Assembly (NCBI GenBank): GCA_037141875.1
Contig: JBAXBT010000001.1
Span: 1-28,654 of the forward strand
Reading direction: 5' to 3'
DNA: 28,654 bases
Source: Candidatus Riflemargulisbacteria bacterium
Lineage (GTDB): Bacteria; Margulisbacteria; Riflemargulisbacteria; GWF2-35-9; DYQY01
Shown: positions 8,489 through 16,398 of the stretch, piece after piece
Layout: each line of letters starts with the position of its first letter
Numbering within the stretch: position 1 is the first letter of the stretch
Position numbers and translations under genes: made by a program
Notes under the pieces: model-generated
The model's input: only the letters and a program-made list of their open reading frames with translations
The model's database searches: none
What the model was told of the DNA's origin: nothing

Positions 8489-9220
8489 TTAAATTCTGCT
8501 TTGTATATACGTTCGTATTGCGATAACAGCTTTTTTATGAACCTGAGATATCCTAGATTCAGATAAATTCATTATAAGACTTATCTCTTTTAGTGACAAT
8601 CGCTGTTCATAGTACAGGCTAAGGATAATTTTATCTTTTTCAGGGAGATCGTCTATTGCTTTAACCAATAGGTCTAATTTCTCCTGTTCTATTATTCCGC
8701 CAAGATGATCTTCATCATCTGATAGTTGATCTATAAACCTTAAATTGTCTTCATCATCCGTAAAATCATCTAAAGACATCAGATACGCACCGCTGGTCTC
8801 TTCTAATAACTTATCAAACTTATCTTCACTTACACCTAACTCCTGTGCAACTTCTGTATCATTAGGGATTCTTCCAAGCTTTTGTTCAAGCTCCTTATAA
8901 GCATCGGATATCTTTTTATGCTTTCTTATTATTGACTGACCACCAAAGCTAACCTTCCTTATCTCATCAAGGACCGCACCACGAACTTTTATATATGCAT
9001 ATGTTTGAAATTGAACATTTTTAGAGCTATCAAAATTTTGAGCTGCTTCCAAAAGACCTATATTTCCAACACTTACAAGATCTTCTCTGTCCATTCCATA
9101 AGGGAGGTTCATCTCCATTCGAGATATAATATGCTTTACTAATGCTAAATTATTAATAACCAGTCTTTCGATTTCCTCACTGGTCTTATCTTGCTCATAA
9201 GGATTATTATTTAATCTCAT
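8489..9220 (-). CDS. fliA: Flagellar sigma factor sigma-28 (FliA/WhiG)
   Basis: DLVSVGNIGLLEAAQNFD, FQTYAYIKVRGAVLDEIR, LSLYYEQRLSLKEISLIMNLSESRISQVH; follows flhF-flhG. Confidence 0.95.
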   Translation of the reverse strand: MRLNNNPYEQDKTSEEIERLVINNLALVKHIISRMEMNLPYGMDREDLVSVGNIGLLEAAQNFDSSKNVQFQTYAYIKVRGAVLDEIRKVSFGGQSIIRKHKKISDAYKELEQKLGRIPNDTEVAQELGVSEDKFDKLLEETSGAYLMSLDDFTDDEDNLRFIDQLSDDEDHLGGIIEQEKLDLLVKAIDDLPEKDKIILSLYYEQRLSLKEISLIMNLSESRISQVHKKAVIAIRTYIQSRI

Positions 9221-9233
9221 GGTCCTTAAAAGC

Positions 9234-9479
9234 CTATCCTTCTTTTTTCTTTTGTTCTGTTCGCCTTTGCTCTTTTCTTAACTCAATCTTTCTCAGCTGA
9301 CTATCAAGCAAAGTTTCTACTGTAATTACACCTAAAATGAGAGATAAATAATAACAAACAAAAAAAGCTACAACAGTCCTAATAACCAAAGAAGTAAAAG
9401 ATACATTCTGCAAAAAGCTAACTAAAAAAACGACTATCGCAGCCGTATTTGCAAAATACAAACAATATTTTTTAATCAT
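9234..9479 (-). CDS. Small two-TM flagellar-locus membrane protein, FlgV-like by topology and position
   Basis: Two hydrophobic helices then a K/R/E-rich tail; sits between flhG and fliA. ATG 9479 overlaps the flhG stop by 8 bp (ORF-track start 9488 is TTG). Confidence 0.55.
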   Translation of the reverse strand: MIKKYCLYFANTAAIVVFLVSFLQNVSFTSLVIRTVVAFFVCYYLSLILGVITVETLLDSQLRKIELRKEQRRTEQKKKEG

Positions 9480-10371
9480 TCCAACCAAAGTACTTTGTAG
9501 CTAATGAAAAGAAATTAGAAAAACTTTTATTGCTACTTGGGTCAATGCTAATAATTTTTTTCGCCAATTTACTGATTTCATAACTTACAACTGCATTAGG
9601 ATAATTAACAAGAACAGGCCTCTGCTCCCTAACAGCTGAACAAAGTGTCTTACTGGAGCTTACATGACCCAAATATTCGATATCTTTGTTAAGAAATTTA
9701 TTACAAACATTTTGTAATAAAGAGTAGACTTTTAATGCTTCATTTTCACTATTAACCATGTTAACAATTATACTGACCTTCATTTCATTATTATATTGAT
9801 GCAAAGTTTTAGTGACGGCATAAGCGTCTGATAAAGAGGTTGGTTCTGAAGTTAAAACTACAATAACTTCATCCGCTGCAAGTAAAAAATTCATAACAGT
9901 ATTACCTACTCCAGCTCCAGTATCTATTATAATAATATCTGGATGATGCTTATCCTGATAAAGTTCAAGTTGTTCAAAAAAGAACTGTTTTTGATTCTCA
10001 GTAAGTGAAGTTAATTGTGCTACCCCTGATACGCCTGGAAGAACTTTTATGTTGTAAGGACCTTCAACTATAACATCCTCAATTGGTATTTGGTCATAAA
10101 TAACATTACTGATATTATACTTAGGAAAAACTCCCATTAAAATATCTACATTTGCTGTACCAAAGTCAGCATCAAGTATAAGGACTTTCTTGTTTTGATT
10201 CTTAGCTATTGCAATGCCTAAGTTCAAAGAAATATTAGATTTACCTACTCCGCCCTTACCACTTGTAACAGCAATGACTCTAGTATTACCTTCTTTTTTA
10301 GAAGGAACAACACTTACATCATTTCTGCCTTGTGACCTTACTAATTGTCTAAGTGAATCAGCCTGATCCAT
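9472..10371 (-). CDS. flhG: Flagellar number regulator FlhG/FleN (MinD-like ATPase)
   Basis: N-terminal MDQADSLR motif, VTSGKGGVGKSN, ILDADFGTANVD, IIDTGAG; directly after flhF. ATG 10371 preceded by GGGGA. Confidence 0.93.
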   Translation of the reverse strand: MDQADSLRQLVRSQGRNDVSVVPSKKEGNTRVIAVTSGKGGVGKSNISLNLGIAIAKNQNKKVLILDADFGTANVDILMGVFPKYNISNVIYDQIPIEDVIVEGPYNIKVLPGVSGVAQLTSLTENQKQFFFEQLELYQDKHHPDIIIIDTGAGVGNTVMNFLLAADEVIVVLTSEPTSLSDAYAVTKTLHQYNNEMKVSIIVNMVNSENEALKVYSLLQNVCNKFLNKDIEYLGHVSSSKTLCSAVREQRPVLVNYPNAVVSYEISKLAKKIISIDPSSNKSFSNFFSLATKYFGWND

Positions 10372-10390
10372 ATTTTCCCCCAAAAATTAT

Positions 10391-11602
10391 CTATCCCTCA
10401 AATATCAAATCAGCAATTTTCCCAGAATTTGCTACCTCAAAATCATCGGGAACATTTTGACCATTCGTAAAATAACTCAACTTCTTGTGATACTTATGAA
10501 CTACATCCAAAATGACCCCTCGAGAATCTGTCTCGTCAACCTTCGTAAATATTACCTTATCATCAAATATAGCACTATAACGTTGAATTGTATTATAAAT
10601 ATCTTTCGACTTTGCAGTAACGCTAAGCACTAAATAAGTATCTACAAAACTATTCCTTAAAAACTTTTTCAGCTCTAAGATTTGAGACCGATTGTTAGGA
10701 GAACGGCCAGCAGTATCAATAAGAATTAAATCCATATCCTTATGTTTTCTAAGCGCCTGAGTGAAATCCTCCATATTAAAGACAACTTCCATAGGTATAC
10801 CTATTATATTAGAATAGTTTCTTAATTGTTCTATGGCCGCAACCCTAAATGTATCGATAGTTATGAGTGCAACTTTCTTTTTCTGTATCAAACTAAAATT
10901 AGCTGCCATTTTTGCAATTGTTGTTGTCTTACCAACTCCAGTAGGCCCTACCAAAGCGATTATCCTTTTGGCATCTGGGACATCAAGATCTATTTGATGA
11001 GCCATCCCTAACATTTGAGTTACTTTGTCTCTAATATAATCATTAACTCGTGCCTTATCTTCTAATTCTTTATCTTCAAAATCATTTTCAATATTCTGCA
11101 AAATACTGACAATCAACTCTTCACTTATCCCTTTTGCTTCCAAGTTTTTATAATAAACAAGTAATTTAGGTGAAATCATCGGATGTGGAGAATTTGCTAC
11201 TTTTCTTACAATGATATTTAGTGTCTCTTTAATATCATCCATTTCTCTTGTAAGAGTTGTGACCTTTTGTTCCAAACTTGAGGTAATAGGAGTTATTTCT
11301 TGTGTTATTTGCTTTATATTCTCTTTCAAATTAAAAACTGGTTTATTTGAATTATTTTGCGAAGGAATAAAAGAGGAAGAAGGAACAAAAGAATTTTGTC
11401 TTTGCTCAACATCCTGTTTTTTTTCAACAATGTTAACATCAACTCCAGCCATAACCTCTACTATATCTTGACCAAATAAACCAAAAATTCCTCCCTTACT
11501 AATAGTTCTGGAATGAAGAATGATTGCTTCAGGCCCAAAGTCCCGTTTAATCATCCTTACAGCATCATTCATGCTCTTGGCTTCATACTTCTTTATCCTC
11601 AT
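10391..11602 (-). CDS. flhF: Flagellar SRP-family GTPase FlhF
   Basis: MRIKKYEAKSM..A...IKRDFG.EAIIL, GPTGVGKTTTIAKMAA, ITIDTFRVAA.EQL, DTAGRS, TKVDET, NGQNVPDD. Confidence 0.96.
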   Translation of the reverse strand: MRIKKYEAKSMNDAVRMIKRDFGPEAIILHSRTISKGGIFGLFGQDIVEVMAGVDVNIVEKKQDVEQRQNSFVPSSSFIPSQNNSNKPVFNLKENIKQITQEITPITSSLEQKVTTLTREMDDIKETLNIIVRKVANSPHPMISPKLLVYYKNLEAKGISEELIVSILQNIENDFEDKELEDKARVNDYIRDKVTQMLGMAHQIDLDVPDAKRIIALVGPTGVGKTTTIAKMAANFSLIQKKKVALITIDTFRVAAIEQLRNYSNIIGIPMEVVFNMEDFTQALRKHKDMDLILIDTAGRSPNNRSQILELKKFLRNSFVDTYLVLSVTAKSKDIYNTIQRYSAIFDDKVIFTKVDETDSRGVILDVVHKYHKKLSYFTNGQNVPDDFEVANSGKIADLIFEG

Positions 11603-13673
11603 TAACTAACCTCACTAATCCTATGGCTTGTATCTCAACCTCTGCTAATATTTCATTATACGCCAAGACAACTAAATTGGGAAATGTACGTGCTGTCATT
11701 TTCCTGAAATGTGGCCTAACACTTGTTGAACATAAAACAAGTGGCTGATACCCCAATTTTGATACTTTTTCTATCTCCTCAGAAATGCTTTGAAACATCT
11801 TTTGAATATACAAAGGACTAAGGGAAGTGAAGGAACCTTGATCAGTATATTGAATGGAGTCCGCGATTTTCTGTTCCAACGATGGATCAAGTGTTATCGC
11901 AACAATAATTCCTTTGGGAGTCTGATACATTTTTGTAATTTGCCTAGCAAGTCCCTGCCGACAATTAGAAGTTAAATTATCAACATTTTTACTAATTCTG
12001 GCATTGTCGGCAAGTATTTCTAAAATGGTAACTAAATTTCTAACTGGTATTCTCTCATTTAAAAGCTGTCCCATTACTTTCTGAACCTCTCCTACTGTCA
12101 TTAAAGTAGGAATAAGCTCCTCAACTACAGCTGGATATTTTTCTTTAACATTATCTATAAGAACTTTAACTTCTTGCCTACCCAATAGTTCAGCAGCATG
12201 TTTACGAATAATTTCTGTAATATGCGTAATGATAACTGTTGCTGCATCTACCACTGTATAACCAGCAACCTGTGCCCTTTCTCTATCACCTGAGGCAATC
12301 CAAATTGCCTTAAGACCAAAAGCTGGCTCAACTGTCTCAAACCCTGAAATCTTTTCTGTAACTCCACCAGGATCCATAGCCAAAAGCCTATCATTCATAA
12401 CTTCTCCAGTTGCCATATCAGCACTTTTAATTTTGATTACATAATTATTTGGCTTTAGACTAATATTGTCTCTTATTCGAATTGGTGGAACGATAATACC
12501 TAACTCAGAAGCTAATTTCTTTCTCATAGAAGTAATATTCTCAAGCAACGCGCCTCCTTGTTTAGGGTCAACCAGCGGAATTACACCATAACCTATTTCC
12601 AGCTCTAAAATATCCATATCAATTTTAGGAACTATTTTTTCTGGAGCAGTTTCCTTTGAGGCATCATCTTTTTTAATGCCAACACTATCTAACTGAGCTC
12701 CATCTTCTTTCCCCTCAAGCGTTTTGAAAGAATTACCAAGATATCCAAAAAAAATGGCCAAAACCAAAAAAGGTAACTTAGGCATTCCAGGAATAAATAA
12801 AGCAAGACCAGAAAGACCTGATGCGATATACATTACCCTCTGCTGTGAAAACATTTGATTTCTAATATCTGAAGCTAAATTAACCTCTGAAGAAGCCTTT
12901 GTAACTATAATGCCAGCAGCTGACGAAATTAATAAAGCAGGAACCTGAAGGACAATACCTGCACCCACAGTCAAAAGAGTATAAACCTGTATTGCTTGCA
13001 TCATTGGCATTCCTAATTGCAAAACTCCTACAATAAATCCTCCTAAAATATTAACAATGATAATGATAATAGATGCAATGGAATCTCCTCGTATAAACTT
13101 GGTAGCACCGTCCATAGACCCATAAAAATCAGCTTCCTTTGCTATATCTATTCTCTTCTTCTTAGCTGTCTCCTCATCAATGAGTCCAGCATTTAAATCT
13201 GCATCAATTGCCATCTGTTTGCCAGGCATTGCATCTAAGGTAAATCTAGCAGCTACTTCCGCAACTCTTTGAGCACCACCCGTTATAACAACAAACTGAA
13301 TAACGACTAACACAAGAAAAATCATTATTCCAACTACATAATTACCACCCACAACAAAATTTCCGAAAGTTGAAACGATGCTACCTGCTGATGCAGTTAA
13401 CATTAAAGATCTTGTAATAAGTATCCCTAATGCCAGCCTAAAAAGTGTTATTAGTAAAAGGAAGGTAGGGAAAACATTAAATTGAACAGCGTCTTTTGTA
13501 TTCATAGTAACCAATAAAATAAGCACAGAAACTGTAAAATTAAGAGAAACAACAATATCTATAAAAAAATTTGGTAAAGGAATAAGAATCATTATCAAGA
13601 CGGCTAAAACGCCTACAACCATGAATAAATCATTAAATATACCTGTTTTTTGAGTGCCAGCTACTTTTTCCAT
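11583..13673 (-). CDS. flhA: Flagellar export gate protein FlhA
   Basis: FPTFLLLITLFRL, RVAEVAARFTLDAMPGKQMAIDADLNAG, ADFYGSMDGA.KF.RGD, GIIVPPIRIRDN; linked to flhF/flhG so flagellar rather than SctV. Start placed at ATG 13673 (uncertain). Confidence 0.96.
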   Translation of the reverse strand: MEKVAGTQKTGIFNDLFMVVGVLAVLIMILIPLPNFFIDIVVSLNFTVSVLILLVTMNTKDAVQFNVFPTFLLLITLFRLALGILITRSLMLTASAGSIVSTFGNFVVGGNYVVGIMIFLVLVVIQFVVITGGAQRVAEVAARFTLDAMPGKQMAIDADLNAGLIDEETAKKKRIDIAKEADFYGSMDGATKFIRGDSIASIIIIIVNILGGFIVGVLQLGMPMMQAIQVYTLLTVGAGIVLQVPALLISSAAGIIVTKASSEVNLASDIRNQMFSQQRVMYIASGLSGLALFIPGMPKLPFLVLAIFFGYLGNSFKTLEGKEDGAQLDSVGIKKDDASKETAPEKIVPKIDMDILELEIGYGVIPLVDPKQGGALLENITSMRKKLASELGIIVPPIRIRDNISLKPNNYVIKIKSADMATGEVMNDRLLAMDPGGVTEKISGFETVEPAFGLKAIWIASGDRERAQVAGYTVVDAATVIITHITEIIRKHAAELLGRQEVKVLIDNVKEKYPAVVEELIPTLMTVGEVQKVMGQLLNERIPVRNLVTILEILADNARISKNVDNLTSNCRQGLARQITKMYQTPKGIIVAITLDPSLEQKIADSIQYTDQGSFTSLSPLYIQKMFQSISEEIEKVSKLGYQPLVLCSTSVRPHFRKMTARTFPNLVVLAYNEILAEVEIQAIGLVRLVNEDKEV

Positions 13674-13733
13674 AGAGAAATAATAACATAGCAAACCCTG
13701 CTTTGTATTCATAAACAATTACAAAATAAGCAT

Positions 13734-14139: not shown

Positions 14140-14700
14140 ATGACTATTAATTTACAGGAAATTCTACACAAATATTTAAACTCAGAAGAAAGAATTAATC
14201 ACTCAATAAGAGTCGCTGACTTAGCCGTAGAATTAGCAAAAAAATATGAAGTTGAACCAACCAAAGCATATACTGCAGGGATACTGCATGACTTAGCAAA
14301 AGAAATCACCTTTGAAAAAGCAATACAAATCTCTCGCGAAAACAACTACTCTCTTTCAGAATCTGAGATTCTAAATAAAAAACTGCTTCATGCACCCATT
14401 GGTGCGCTAATTGCTCAATACGAGTTAGGAATAACAGATGCTGAAGTAATAAGTTCAATCCGCTGGCATACTACAGGGAAAGCAAACATGAGCACTTTAG
14501 AAAAAATCATATACTTAGCTGACATGGCTGAACCAGGAAGAAAATTTCCAGAAGCTATTGAAATAAAAGAATTTGCTTTTCAAGACATTAATAAAGCAAT
14601 GCACTTTGCAATAAAGCATTCACTCAAAAAACTTATAGACGCTGAACGCAATATAGATTCTAACTCAATAGACTGTTACAACTATCTTACAAAAAGCTAA
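14140..14700 (+). CDS. yqeK: YqeK-family HD hydrolase (symmetrical Ap4A hydrolase)
   Basis: HSIRVA, AGILHDLAKE, LLHAPIGA, SIRWHTTG, LEKIIYLADMAEPGR. Confidence 0.92.
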   Translation: MTINLQEILHKYLNSEERINHSIRVADLAVELAKKYEVEPTKAYTAGILHDLAKEITFEKAIQISRENNYSLSESEILNKKLLHAPIGALIAQYELGITDAEVISSIRWHTTGKANMSTLEKIIYLADMAEPGRKFPEAIEIKEFAFQDINKAMHFAIKHSLKKLIDAERNIDSNSIDCYNYLTKS

Positions 14701-15848
14701 CGACTAAGAGCCTGAGAAAAGCTCTTCATTGCTTCAGACAAGGTGTCTCCTATCATTTTACCTACTGCTGTATAAGTAGCTATCATGTCTTTCATAGTTT
14801 GTAATTTCTGTTGAAGTTGAAACAATGCACCAGGATCAGTATAAGAAGTTAAATTATTAGCAAAATCTAACATACTCCTATATGTAGAATCTATTGAATC
14901 ACCTATATCATGACGAACCTGCGAAAGAGAAGATGTATTTGGGGTAGTGCCTGCAGTATAAAGACTGTTCACATTATTTCCATCTTCCATAGACCATGCA
15001 TTTCCTACTGAACCATCTCCACTAGTAACTTCCTGAGAGCTAAAAGTAAAAGCAAAATCAGACAACTCTGCAGTACCCTGAGTTAAATTTGTTGCATCAT
15101 AAGTCGTAATCTGGCCGCTTCCTCCAACCAATCCAACGACTACGTGTCCCTGGGTTGAAGCATCTCCACTAGTAACACAAACTTGCACCTTACTCTCATC
15201 AACTCCACAAGCTATAGCTAAGTTTGCAACTAAAATAGCCATATCTTCACAATCCCCTGAACCTGAAGCAAGCGTATTAGAAGCAGAACTCCACCCTTCT
15301 CCTGGCACATCAGCTTCATACCTAACATTTGAGTTCACATACTTAGTTATAGCTGATAGCTTTTCGGCATCAGTCATTGTGTCAGTAATAATTCCTTGAG
15401 CCATCAACTGACTTGCAAGGTCTACAACTGAAGCATTTTGTGGTTGGATAAAAGAAGTAATATCAACATTATTTGTGCCATCAAAAGCAGTTGCTTTATT
15501 AATATTAGCATTTGCTTGAATAGTTAAGGACAGTTCAGCTAAATAGGACATTATCTTTTGCTGATCCTCAAGACTCATATCATCAGTAATAACAAAATCT
15601 GATCTCAGTGTGTCAAAAAGTGCTTGAACTGCAGGATCGTTGGATTGAAAAATATCTGGAATACCCGTATATTTCTGGCCATTAATTTCTATTTTAAAGA
15701 ATTGATAATCACCTTGTTTAGAAGAACCTGCATAACTGGACTCCATCTCAACTGATTGTTGAACCAAACCATCTTCTTGTAAAATTGTTTCAGGAAGTCT
15801 CTGATTAACACCTCCTTGTGACTCAATCCCAACATTATTAATAACCAT
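14697..15848 (-). CDS. Transglutaminase-like (Cys-His-Asp) protein with uncharacterised helical N- and C-terminal extensions; probably secreted
   Basis: KLSAITKYVNSNVRY, TLASGSGDCEDMAILVANL (C200), GHVVV (H235), YDAT (D251); acidic, S/T/N/G-rich; SD GGGGGA. Core assignment is solid, extensions are not. Confidence 0.8.
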   Translation of the reverse strand: MVINNVGIESQGGVNQRLPETILQEDGLVQQSVEMESSYAGSSKQGDYQFFKIEINGQKYTGIPDIFQSNDPAVQALFDTLRSDFVITDDMSLEDQQKIMSYLAELSLTIQANANINKATAFDGTNNVDITSFIQPQNASVVDLASQLMAQGIITDTMTDAEKLSAITKYVNSNVRYEADVPGEGWSSASNTLASGSGDCEDMAILVANLAIACGVDESKVQVCVTSGDASTQGHVVVGLVGGSGQITTYDATNLTQGTAELSDFAFTFSSQEVTSGDGSVGNAWSMEDGNNVNSLYTAGTTPNTSSLSQVRHDIGDSIDSTYRSMLDFANNLTSYTDPGALFQLQQKLQTMKDMIATYTAVGKMIGDTLSEAMKSFSQALSR

Positions 15849-15873
15849 GTTAAATCCCCCCTATCTCTATTTA

Positions 15874-16269
15874 TTAAATATTCTGGTCATAAGAAAACGC
15901 ATCATTAGCTTGACTAGCGGTTTCTTTTAATTGTTTTTCCAGTTCATCCCAAATCATATCTTCCAAAAACTTATTACACAACTCTTCTTGAGTAATACCA
16001 TTTGTGCCTGAAGATGTCGCGCCATACGTTGACATATTCGCAATTTCTAAATTCTCCGTTCCCTGCATATCTCCATGATATACACTTATTTTAACGTCTC
16101 CCTCTGTAGCATCTAAAAGCTGACCAACAGTAGTCTCATTGCCCTCATACATCAAACTCATAGATAGTATTTCATTTTGATCGATTACGCCATCAGCTAC
16201 TAAAGCAGAACTGTTCCTTTGCTCCGATAGGTTTATAAAAACATTTCCAGAAACATAATTTGACTCCAT
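15874..16269 (-). CDS. Hypothetical acidic 131-aa protein, probably co-transcribed with the transglutaminase-like gene
   Basis: SD AAGGAG, 25-bp gap to next gene, similar composition; C-terminal amphipathic helix FLEDMIWDELEKQLKE. Confidence 0.75.
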   Translation of the reverse strand: MESNYVSGNVFINLSEQRNSSALVADGVIDQNEILSMSLMYEGNETTVGQLLDATEGDVKISVYHGDMQGTENLEIANMSTYGATSSGTNGITQEELCNKFLEDMIWDELEKQLKETASQANDAFSYDQNI

Positions 16270-16398
16270 GTTCTACTCCTTTATAAACTTTTCTACTTAC
16301 ATTGTTAATATCGCCACGAATAGAGAAATAAATGTATCGAAAATTATTAATGAATATTTTATTGTGTTTTGGGCGTATTAACTATTGGGGGAATATCT

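Follow-up and report, generated by a model that had tools for sequence, protein, structure and literature searches.

A LapG-like protease with a portable C-terminal helical hairpin beside flagellar export genes of a Margulisbacterium

The subject of this report is a gene in a stretch of 28,654 nucleotides (nt) of Candidatus Riflemargulisbacteria bacterium (assembly GCA_037141875.1, contig JBAXBT010000001.1, positions 1 to 28,654 of the forward strand), which we call the window. Its product of 383 amino acids (aa), referred to below as the target, combines a cysteine protease domain of the transglutaminase fold with a C-terminal helical hairpin, and the gene is found in a neighbourhood of flagellar export genes. 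The parts of the target are as follows, pLDDT being the predicted local distance difference test score of the AlphaFold2 (AF2) model.

14697..15848, minus strand: target gene, 383 aa, protease domain plus tail module.
14949..15572, minus strand: LapG/BTLCP-like transglutaminase-fold cysteine protease domain, aa 93-300, with the GDCED motif (Pfam, PDB profile, AF2 and Foldseek).
15249-15251, 15144-15146 and 15096-15098, minus strand: codons of the catalytic residues C200, H235 and D251, respectively (codons checked).
14700..14927, minus strand: C-terminal helical hairpin module, aa 308-383 (AF2 and alignments).
15659..15848, minus strand: N-terminus of the target, aa 1-63, predicted to be disordered (pLDDT below 50), with no signal peptide.

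The target has 8 orthologues of 63-87% identity that share its synteny, and in their alignment the extreme N-terminus (MVD.INN.G) is kept. The protein is very acidic, with an isoelectric point (pI) of 4.06, 12 Lys, 6 Arg and a 41% share of Ser, Thr, Asn, Gly and Gln. Hydropathy analysis gave neither a hydrophobic N-terminal stretch nor a transmembrane stretch, hence no Sec signal is seen. An acidic protein of this composition lacking a Sec signal is what the original prediction, made from the letters of the window, had described.

The enzyme can be assigned with some precision. The Pfam family Transglut_core (PF01841) matches aa 149-236 with an E-value (E) of 1.1e-9 and 39 bits against a cut-off of 23. 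Peptidase_C93/BTLCP (PF06035) reaches 26.1 bits, just below its cut-off of 27, and the NCBIfam LapG model gives 22 bits against a cut-off of 320. As both of these matches stay below cut-off, the target is a relative of LapG and not its equivalog. When a profile of the orthologues was compared with the PDB, the top chains were those of LapG, 4fgo and 4u65, with the GDCED nucleophile motif and the catalytic His aligned. The AF2 model has a pLDDT above 90 over aa 121-300, and Foldseek ranks LapG first. The predicted Cys-His-Asp core is indeed intact: C200, H235 and D251 are invariant in the 8 orthologues and kept in 36-37 of 37 aligned domain homologues, Cys and His align with those of LapG, and the run G198-D199-C200-E201-D202 is essentially invariant across the same 37 sequences.

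Like the LapG/BTLCP enzymes (MEROPS C93, PF06035; 4fgo, 4u65), the target has a transglutaminase-fold core with GDCED around the nucleophile and the same triad spacing, 35 residues from Cys to His and 16-17 from His to Asp. Unlike LapG, it lacks a Sec signal and possesses an additional disordered N-terminus and the C-terminal hairpin module. LapG-type enzymes are periplasmic and Ca-dependent (PMC4359373), and the target domain is best named a LapG-like, probably Ca-dependent transglutaminase-fold cysteine protease. Its nearer domain relatives (30-41% identity) are parts of giant proteins of adhesin size (4,000-7,800 aa), in which they lie close to the N-terminus. Neither a LapD-type receptor nor a LapA-type substrate is encoded among the neighbours in the window, and no genome-wide search aimed at LapD or LapA was made. 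The enzyme domain itself is ordinary, and the protease is a new variant within a known enzyme family.

The new part is the portable C-terminal hairpin, the hallmark of a small group of proteins that lack signal peptides and are tightly co-regulated. Neither this tail nor its regulon could be assigned to a known family. AF2 places helices at residues 308-331 and 339-382 (pLDDT 55-88), in agreement with the helix-turn-helix that had been predicted for the last 75 or so residues. Its universally conserved core runs from a Pro-Gly turn (14829-14834) through one long helix to the C-terminus and has the consensus PG.LF..QQ.LQ..KD.I......GK..GD........F. The hairpin is the best conserved block of the orthologue alignment. 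Furthermore, in an exhaustive search of 1.84 billion proteins several matches were to the tail alone and always at the extreme C-terminus, in proteins of 218-893 aa with differing bodies. This top conservation among orthologues, together with the recurrence at the C-termini of unrelated proteins, puts the hairpin beyond chance. The module is present in all 12 genomes of one Marinamargulisbacteria order and in none of the 69 other Margulisbacteria genomes. Most genomes of the order carry 3-4 copies, two carry 1, and the source genome carries three.

At least four paralogous protein families, A to D, end in the module. Family A, to which the target belongs, adjoins flhA and has a variable body; family B (230-306 aa) has a conserved N-terminal helix besides the module; family C measures 310-360 aa; and family D (588-996 aa) combines a protease domain of the target's type with GGxGxD RTX-like repeats just upstream of the tail. 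In the source genome, the family D gene is split over two contig ends (G000:C84:4013-6055 and G000:C29:1-390) and encodes at least 8 GGxGxD repeats. A further protein, of 105 aa, is nothing but the module; it is rare, 5.8 billion proteins containing 3 clusters of it. None of the members has a signal peptide or a transmembrane segment, all are acidic, and across the families only the second helix of the hairpin is conserved. In two genomes of the set, G008 and G009, the positional orthologues of the target beside flhA are only 226-233 aa long and have no protease domain, which makes the protease an exchangeable cargo on a conserved scaffold. No description of the module, or of flagellar or secretion biology of Margulisbacteria, was found in the searchable literature.

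Two observations on the module sequence stand somewhat apart. The end of a 112-aa open reading frame (ORF) of the source genome (G000:C17:3031-3369, minus strand) is module-like but divergent, consisting of DPGSLFFINTKLNSLKD and a helix after it. The hidden Markov model (HMM) of the module gives this ORF 15 bits, and the promoter motif described below is not found upstream of it. In addition, there is a weak resemblance between the module core, QQ.LQ.IKD.IA.IT..GK, and the axial-protein motif at the N-terminus of FlgC, QQKLQAIAENIAN.NT (QQKLQ.I..NIAN). The resemblance to FlgC (G004:C6, L077:9827-10276; G000:C7:10449-10895) amounts to 13 bits with E 0.004 in a small database, and we do not rely on it; it could be due to chance or could hint at an axial-protein ancestry.

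The target gene is the second gene of a two-gene operon. The first gene encodes an acidic 131-aa protein, 25 nt separate this ORF from the target gene, a GGGGGG ribosome-binding site precedes the latter, and a conserved intergenic region lies before both. The surrounding features are given next.

15874..16269, minus strand: first operon ORF, 131 aa, pI 4.05, without a family match.
16298..16337, minus strand: promoter-like motif, 40 nt upstream of the first operon ORF.
16332-16337 and 16309-16314, minus strand: motif parts ATACAT and GCGATA (extended TGGCGATATTA), separated by a 17-nt spacer and followed by TGTA.
16369..18555, plus strand: two divergent ORFs of 357 and 367 aa, rich in Lys, Gln and Asn, without family assignment.
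8489..13718, minus strand: flagellar export and regulation genes of system 1, flhA (11583-13718), flhF, flhG and fliA (8489-9220).

The target gene has a flagellar neighbourhood: flhA, flhF, flhG and fliA lie downstream of it on the same strand, and wherever a genome of the order was examined these genes again adjoin the module gene. On the opposite side of the target are cheW and the two divergent ORFs, which hold their place beside the module gene throughout the order. At 14697-14700, the stop codon of the protease gene and the end of a convergent HD-domain gene (14140-14700, plus strand) share 4 nt, and no terminator-like hairpin was found within 14400-16600. The 131-aa ORF is kept within the genus only (4 orthologues, 43-60% identity). 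It is missing from the sister genus, in which the promoter motif directly precedes the protease gene. An AF2 model of this ORF, run to look for a fold of type III secretion system (T3SS) chaperones, reached a pLDDT of 50 and was too poor for a fold search. A likeness of the ORF to the N-terminus of family B had been noted by eye and was dropped, as hhalign gave it no support.

The region upstream of the operon is strongly conserved across four genomes, one of which lacks the 131-aa ORF. In several genomes, a motif of the form ATACAT, about 17 nt, [G/T]CGATAT and then TGTA is found upstream of families A, B, C and D and of the mini protein. Two relatives, G004 and G002, have genomes that are 99% complete. 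G004 has four motif sites genome-wide, one before each module family, and G002 has three distinct sites, all before module genes; a control search of both with the reversed pattern returned 0 matches. Within the order there are 2-5 sites per genome, and outside the order the motif does not recur in the same form. Because its orientation, spacing and position are fixed, we read the motif as a putative promoter. Its -10 element matches 7 of the 8 bases of the sigma-28 -10 consensus. The canonical sigma-28 promoter, TAAA-N15-GCCGATAA, was found upstream of none of the module genes and is present before a flagellin gene in G002.

Several side observations concern this putative regulon. The same motif is found at 1026-1065 of contig C225 of the source genome, where the minus-strand gene G000:C225:168-995 encodes a tail-less protein of 275 aa whose CxxC region is thioredoxin-like and which appears to be a regulon member without the module. 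A FliA-like sigma factor is encoded beside the second flhA copy, flhA2 (G000:C56:4715-5641), and it and its homologues are conserved throughout the phylum. In the order that bears the module and the promoter motif, and only there, this sigma factor has an N-terminal extension of about 110 aa, which in some genomes is a separate or interrupted reading frame. We considered it as an order-specific regulator and rejected it in that role, since the gene is phylum-wide and only the extension is specific to the order. The promoter pattern search also yielded, as by-catch, an element about 37 nt long (ATGCATTTCACAGGTATACTTTATCGATAAGTGGGTA and variants) that is present in multiple copies on many contigs of G022 and G014.

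The stretch occurs in freshwater and lake metagenomes. Metatranscriptome contigs cover parts of the protease gene; two of them, from the probable source sample, are 100% identical to it and longer ones derive from relatives. Contig coverage of the 131-aa ORF reaches 16286, that of the divergent ORFs sets in at 16498, and the promoter-bearing gap in between is uncovered. Such a gap (16286-16498) fits two divergent transcripts, contigs of this kind being unable to prove transcription or transcript ends.

Genomes of the class to which the window belongs encode two complete-looking flagellar-type systems, with FlhA, FlhB and FliF each present twice. All copies of these three proteins are of the flagellar type and none is of the injectisome type. 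In the FlhA tree, the window copy clusters with the FlhA of E. coli, the second one is placed with the single FlhA found in all other Margulisbacteria, and both are apart from SctV. The two proteins (flhA1, window 11583-13718; flhA2, G000:C56:2151-4256) are 40% identical. It is the window copy that is accompanied by flhF, flhG and fliA and adjoined by the family A gene in every genome of the order examined. Canonical flagellins are confined to the two-system class and are encoded away from the target locus. From the grouping of the two FlhA copies, the system with flagellin may have been acquired or may be an old paralogue. The original prediction had asked for a non-flagellar set of sct genes. 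Instead of it, we found the two flagellar-type systems and a single secretin, which is short and unlinked, and no injectisome genes. The secretin (320 aa, G004:C7:36502-37464, L079:6502-7464) lies beside comM and two small ORFs without assignment, about 12 kb from fliF of system 1. Likewise, a search for type IV and type VI secretion system (T4SS, T6SS) components found no VirB4 and no TssC.

As to the ancestral flagellar-type system of Margulisbacteria, it comprises FlhA, FlhB, FliF, FliE, FlgB, FlgC, rod, P-ring, L-ring, FliH, FliI and a sigma factor of its own; example loci are L076 (G013:C5:93000-112900) and L077 (G004:C6:8000-27900). Flagellin_N is found in 0 of the 13 genomes outside the class of the window (G013-G025), and G013 gives no hook-sized Flg_bb_rod match. 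The ancestral system may be a flagellin-less flagellar-type apparatus.

The explanation that we favour, and to which we give about as much credence as doubt, is that the target is an enzyme cargo exported by a flagellar-type T3SS and that the shared tail is the element by which such proteins are exported, docked or assembled. The cargo part of this acidic protein, which lacks a signal peptide, is a protease of the LapG/BTLCP type, probably Ca-dependent. The C-terminal hairpin of 45-75 aa is a lineage-specific module common to at least four paralogous families, all of which would be transcribed from one dedicated promoter with a sigma-28-like -10 element. The module would give these otherwise unrelated proteins recognition, docking or assembly at the flagellar-type type III export apparatus, and the exported protease would then attack a surface protein or a foreign protein beyond the cytoplasm. 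The analysis shows the domain architecture, the intact active site, a modular tail that is confined to one order, the promoter motif in common, the flagellar surroundings and the failure to find other secretion systems that work without a signal peptide; we infer export itself, its route, the role of the tail and the substrate of the enzyme. The flagellar-type route follows by elimination: there are two flagellar-type systems, the gene is adjacent to flhA, and no type I secretion system (T1SS), T4SS or T6SS was found. A hint at a location outside the cytoplasm comes from the periplasmic nature of LapG-type enzymes, the GGxGxD repeats of family D and the acidic composition without a signal peptide.

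The favoured explanation has partial parallels among known systems. Late flagellar substrates have C-terminal chaperone-binding helices, as in the pairs FliC-FliS, FlgK/L-FlgN and FliD-FliT, and they resemble the module proteins in the shared C-terminal amphipathic helix, the dedicated late promoter with a CGATA-type -10 element and the adjacency to flhA. However, the module has no sequence similarity to the C-termini of flagellin, FlgK or FlgL, and its promoter departs from sigma-28 in the -35 element and the spacing. HopX/AvrPphE-type effectors of plant pathogens are transglutaminase-superfamily cysteine proteases delivered by type III secretion. They share with the target a transglutaminase-fold Cys-His-Asp enzyme, but belong to a different subfamily, are delivered by an injectisome, have an N-terminal signal and lack a C-terminal hairpin.

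Several points weigh against the favoured explanation. One genome, G012, has both flagellar systems and no detectable module, which means that neither system depends on the module in general. The export signals known from flagella and injectisomes are located at the N-terminus, and C-terminal helices serve chaperone binding or polymerisation. The 105-aa protein that consists of the module alone is hard to explain if the module is purely an export tag. The difference of the module promoter from the canonical sigma-28 type, described above, also counts here, as does the fact that contigs from RNA libraries cannot exclude a carry-over of DNA.

An alternative, which we consider unlikely, is that the hairpin is a true polymerisation domain of the SctF or axial type, by means of which the module proteins would assemble into or onto a needle, filament or tip via a flagellar-type T3SS and display the enzyme outside. 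One argument for it is that the needle family T3SS_needle_F (PF09392) is the top Pfam match of the isolated tail, with 21.4 bits, E 2.9e-4 and coverage of model positions 1-65 of 71, and that the tail is the sole match of this family in the six-frame translated genome (E 6e-4). Within the target, the match is confined to aa 308-371. However, all the scores obtained (16.5, 20.9 and 21.4 bits) are below the gathering cut-off of 29.4, only 4 of 12 module variants match, all of them near-identical orthologues, and the family Phasin_2 matches these equally well. In favour of the needle reading, MxiI, a genuine inner-rod protein, reaches just 20.1 bits on the same model. In profile-profile comparison by hhalign, the turn and the last helix of the module are in register with needles over 42 ungapped columns, down to the C-terminal Phe, but the P-values are 0.006-0.05; in the same test the inner-rod proteins MxiI and EprJ gave 5.6e-5 and 0.047, respectively. 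Our own needle HMM, built from 30 non-redundant needles, gives the tail 8 bits, and the tail is not its best match in the genome. No match of PF09392 above cut-off was found in the 81 genomes of the phylum.

By the language-model features of the Atlas, the tail is nearest to needle clusters (score 0.91, 191 of 256 features shared), followed by clusters of HrpF, EspA and HrpE, and family B scores 0.82-0.85 with needle, EspA and LcrV clusters. The tail superimposes on a needle cluster structure with template modelling (TM) scores of 0.82 and 0.81, but many unrelated helical hairpins fit equally well. The 105-aa protein, whose existence would suit a needle, shows no needle signal in the Atlas search (best score 0.76), and together with its rarity this means that there is no abundant small subunit. 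A search of the tail profile against PDB sequences produced a chance coiled-coil match only (E 1.1) and was set aside. A homo-oligomer prediction with four tail copies scored 0.17 against a mark of 0.42, which is no verdict and counts neither way. Paralogues with a common terminal helix and variable middles have the architecture of axial proteins, and there is a precedent for enzyme-bearing filament subunits in flagellinolysin, a proteolytic flagellin (PMC5595980). What the target would share with flagellinolysin is the concept, an enzyme domain on a protein that has its terminal helices from an assembly system exported by type III secretion. Unlike in the target, which has no flagellin domains, the enzyme of flagellinolysin sits between the N- and C-terminal domains of flagellin.

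Hence, the likeness of the hairpin to SctF is real but borderline, and it does not suffice for membership in that family. Like the SctF needles of PF09392 (MxiH, PrgI, YscF and EscF), the tail is a helix-turn-helix of some 75 aa in which L..LQ..L comes after a turn that contains Pro, and it has a long last helix and a conserved Phe near the free C-terminus. It differs from them in being the end domain of proteins of 105-996 aa, SctF being a standalone protein of 70-90 aa, in remaining below all thresholds, and in that no injectisome genes were found in these genomes. What keeps the needle interpretation alive is the SctF-like shape with a free C-terminus, the paralogues with variable middles and the standalone mini protein. 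The original prediction had in fact proposed two needle-like segments, and they fared differently. The C-terminal one is conserved among homologues and shows weak SctF signals, and so the proposal survives for this half. The other one, aa 103-118, likened by eye to PrgI, has no Pfam needle match and varies among the orthologues. As it is inside the region common to tail-less transglutaminase-domain homologues, the matches of which begin at query residues 53-110, it belongs to the N-terminal lobe of the enzyme. A more far-reaching version, for which the chances appear slimmer still, is that families A to D are the extracellular building blocks (filament, tip or adaptor) and the cargo of a secretion or adhesion appendage built by one of the two flagellar-type T3SSs of Marinamargulisbacteria, and that their common SctF-like hairpin arose, or was kept, without any link to injectisomes.

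It is also conceivable, if quite improbable, that the target stays intracellular, the hairpin being an interaction domain for a common regulator, a sigma or anti-sigma factor or a scaffold in a small stress or developmental regulon, and the protease being cytoplasmic. This would agree with the lack of a signal peptide, with a dedicated promoter that has at least one non-module regulon member (the thioredoxin-like protein of C225), and with the sigma factor beside flhA2 that is extended N-terminally only in the module-bearing order; the weak Phasin_2 match shows, moreover, how unspecific helical matches can be. On the other hand, both the LapG-type enzyme and the GGxGxD repeats are extracytoplasmic, Ca-dependent features (PMC4359373). 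The very acidic, Ser-, Thr-, Asn- and Gly-rich, Cys-poor composition and the disordered N-termini fit secreted proteins, the nearest domain relatives reside in adhesin-sized giants, and the gene adjoins flhA throughout the order. Finally, an uncleaved tail at the extreme C-terminus of acidic proteins without a Sec signal, preceded in family D by RTX-like repeats, could be taken for a C-terminal signal of RTX-type T1SS, recognised by an ATP-binding cassette (ABC) transporter, a membrane fusion protein and TolC. This possibility is largely refuted and we regard it as very remote. In G002 and G004, each of which carries 4 module genes, a search for an HlyD-type membrane fusion protein at E 1e-5 gave nothing, and G002 shows only ABC ATPase-domain matches. 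None of the module-bearing genomes has a PrtD-type ABC protein that exceeds the cut-off. A PrtD/HlyD pair is present in two Margulisbacteria genomes, G023 and G012, both devoid of the module, and no ABC or membrane fusion protein genes adjoin any module gene.

The phylum in which these findings were made is uncultured, has two flagellar-type export machines and shows no further obvious way out of the cell. Should the tail serve export or assembly, as in the explanation that we favour, it would provide a handle for finding the secretome of these bacteria, some relatives of which are animal symbionts. It would likewise allow the delivery of enzymes by a flagellar-type T3SS to be put to the test, and the hairpin would be a possible remote relative or analogue of the needle hairpin outside the injectisome, which bears on the origin of the needle from the flagellar system. 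The putative dedicated promoter also offers a simple means of finding further members of the regulon. Should families A to D prove to be parts of an appendage, a "needle" would have been reached a second time, from the flagellum, and this in a phylum with an ancestral apparatus that appears to be flagellin-less.

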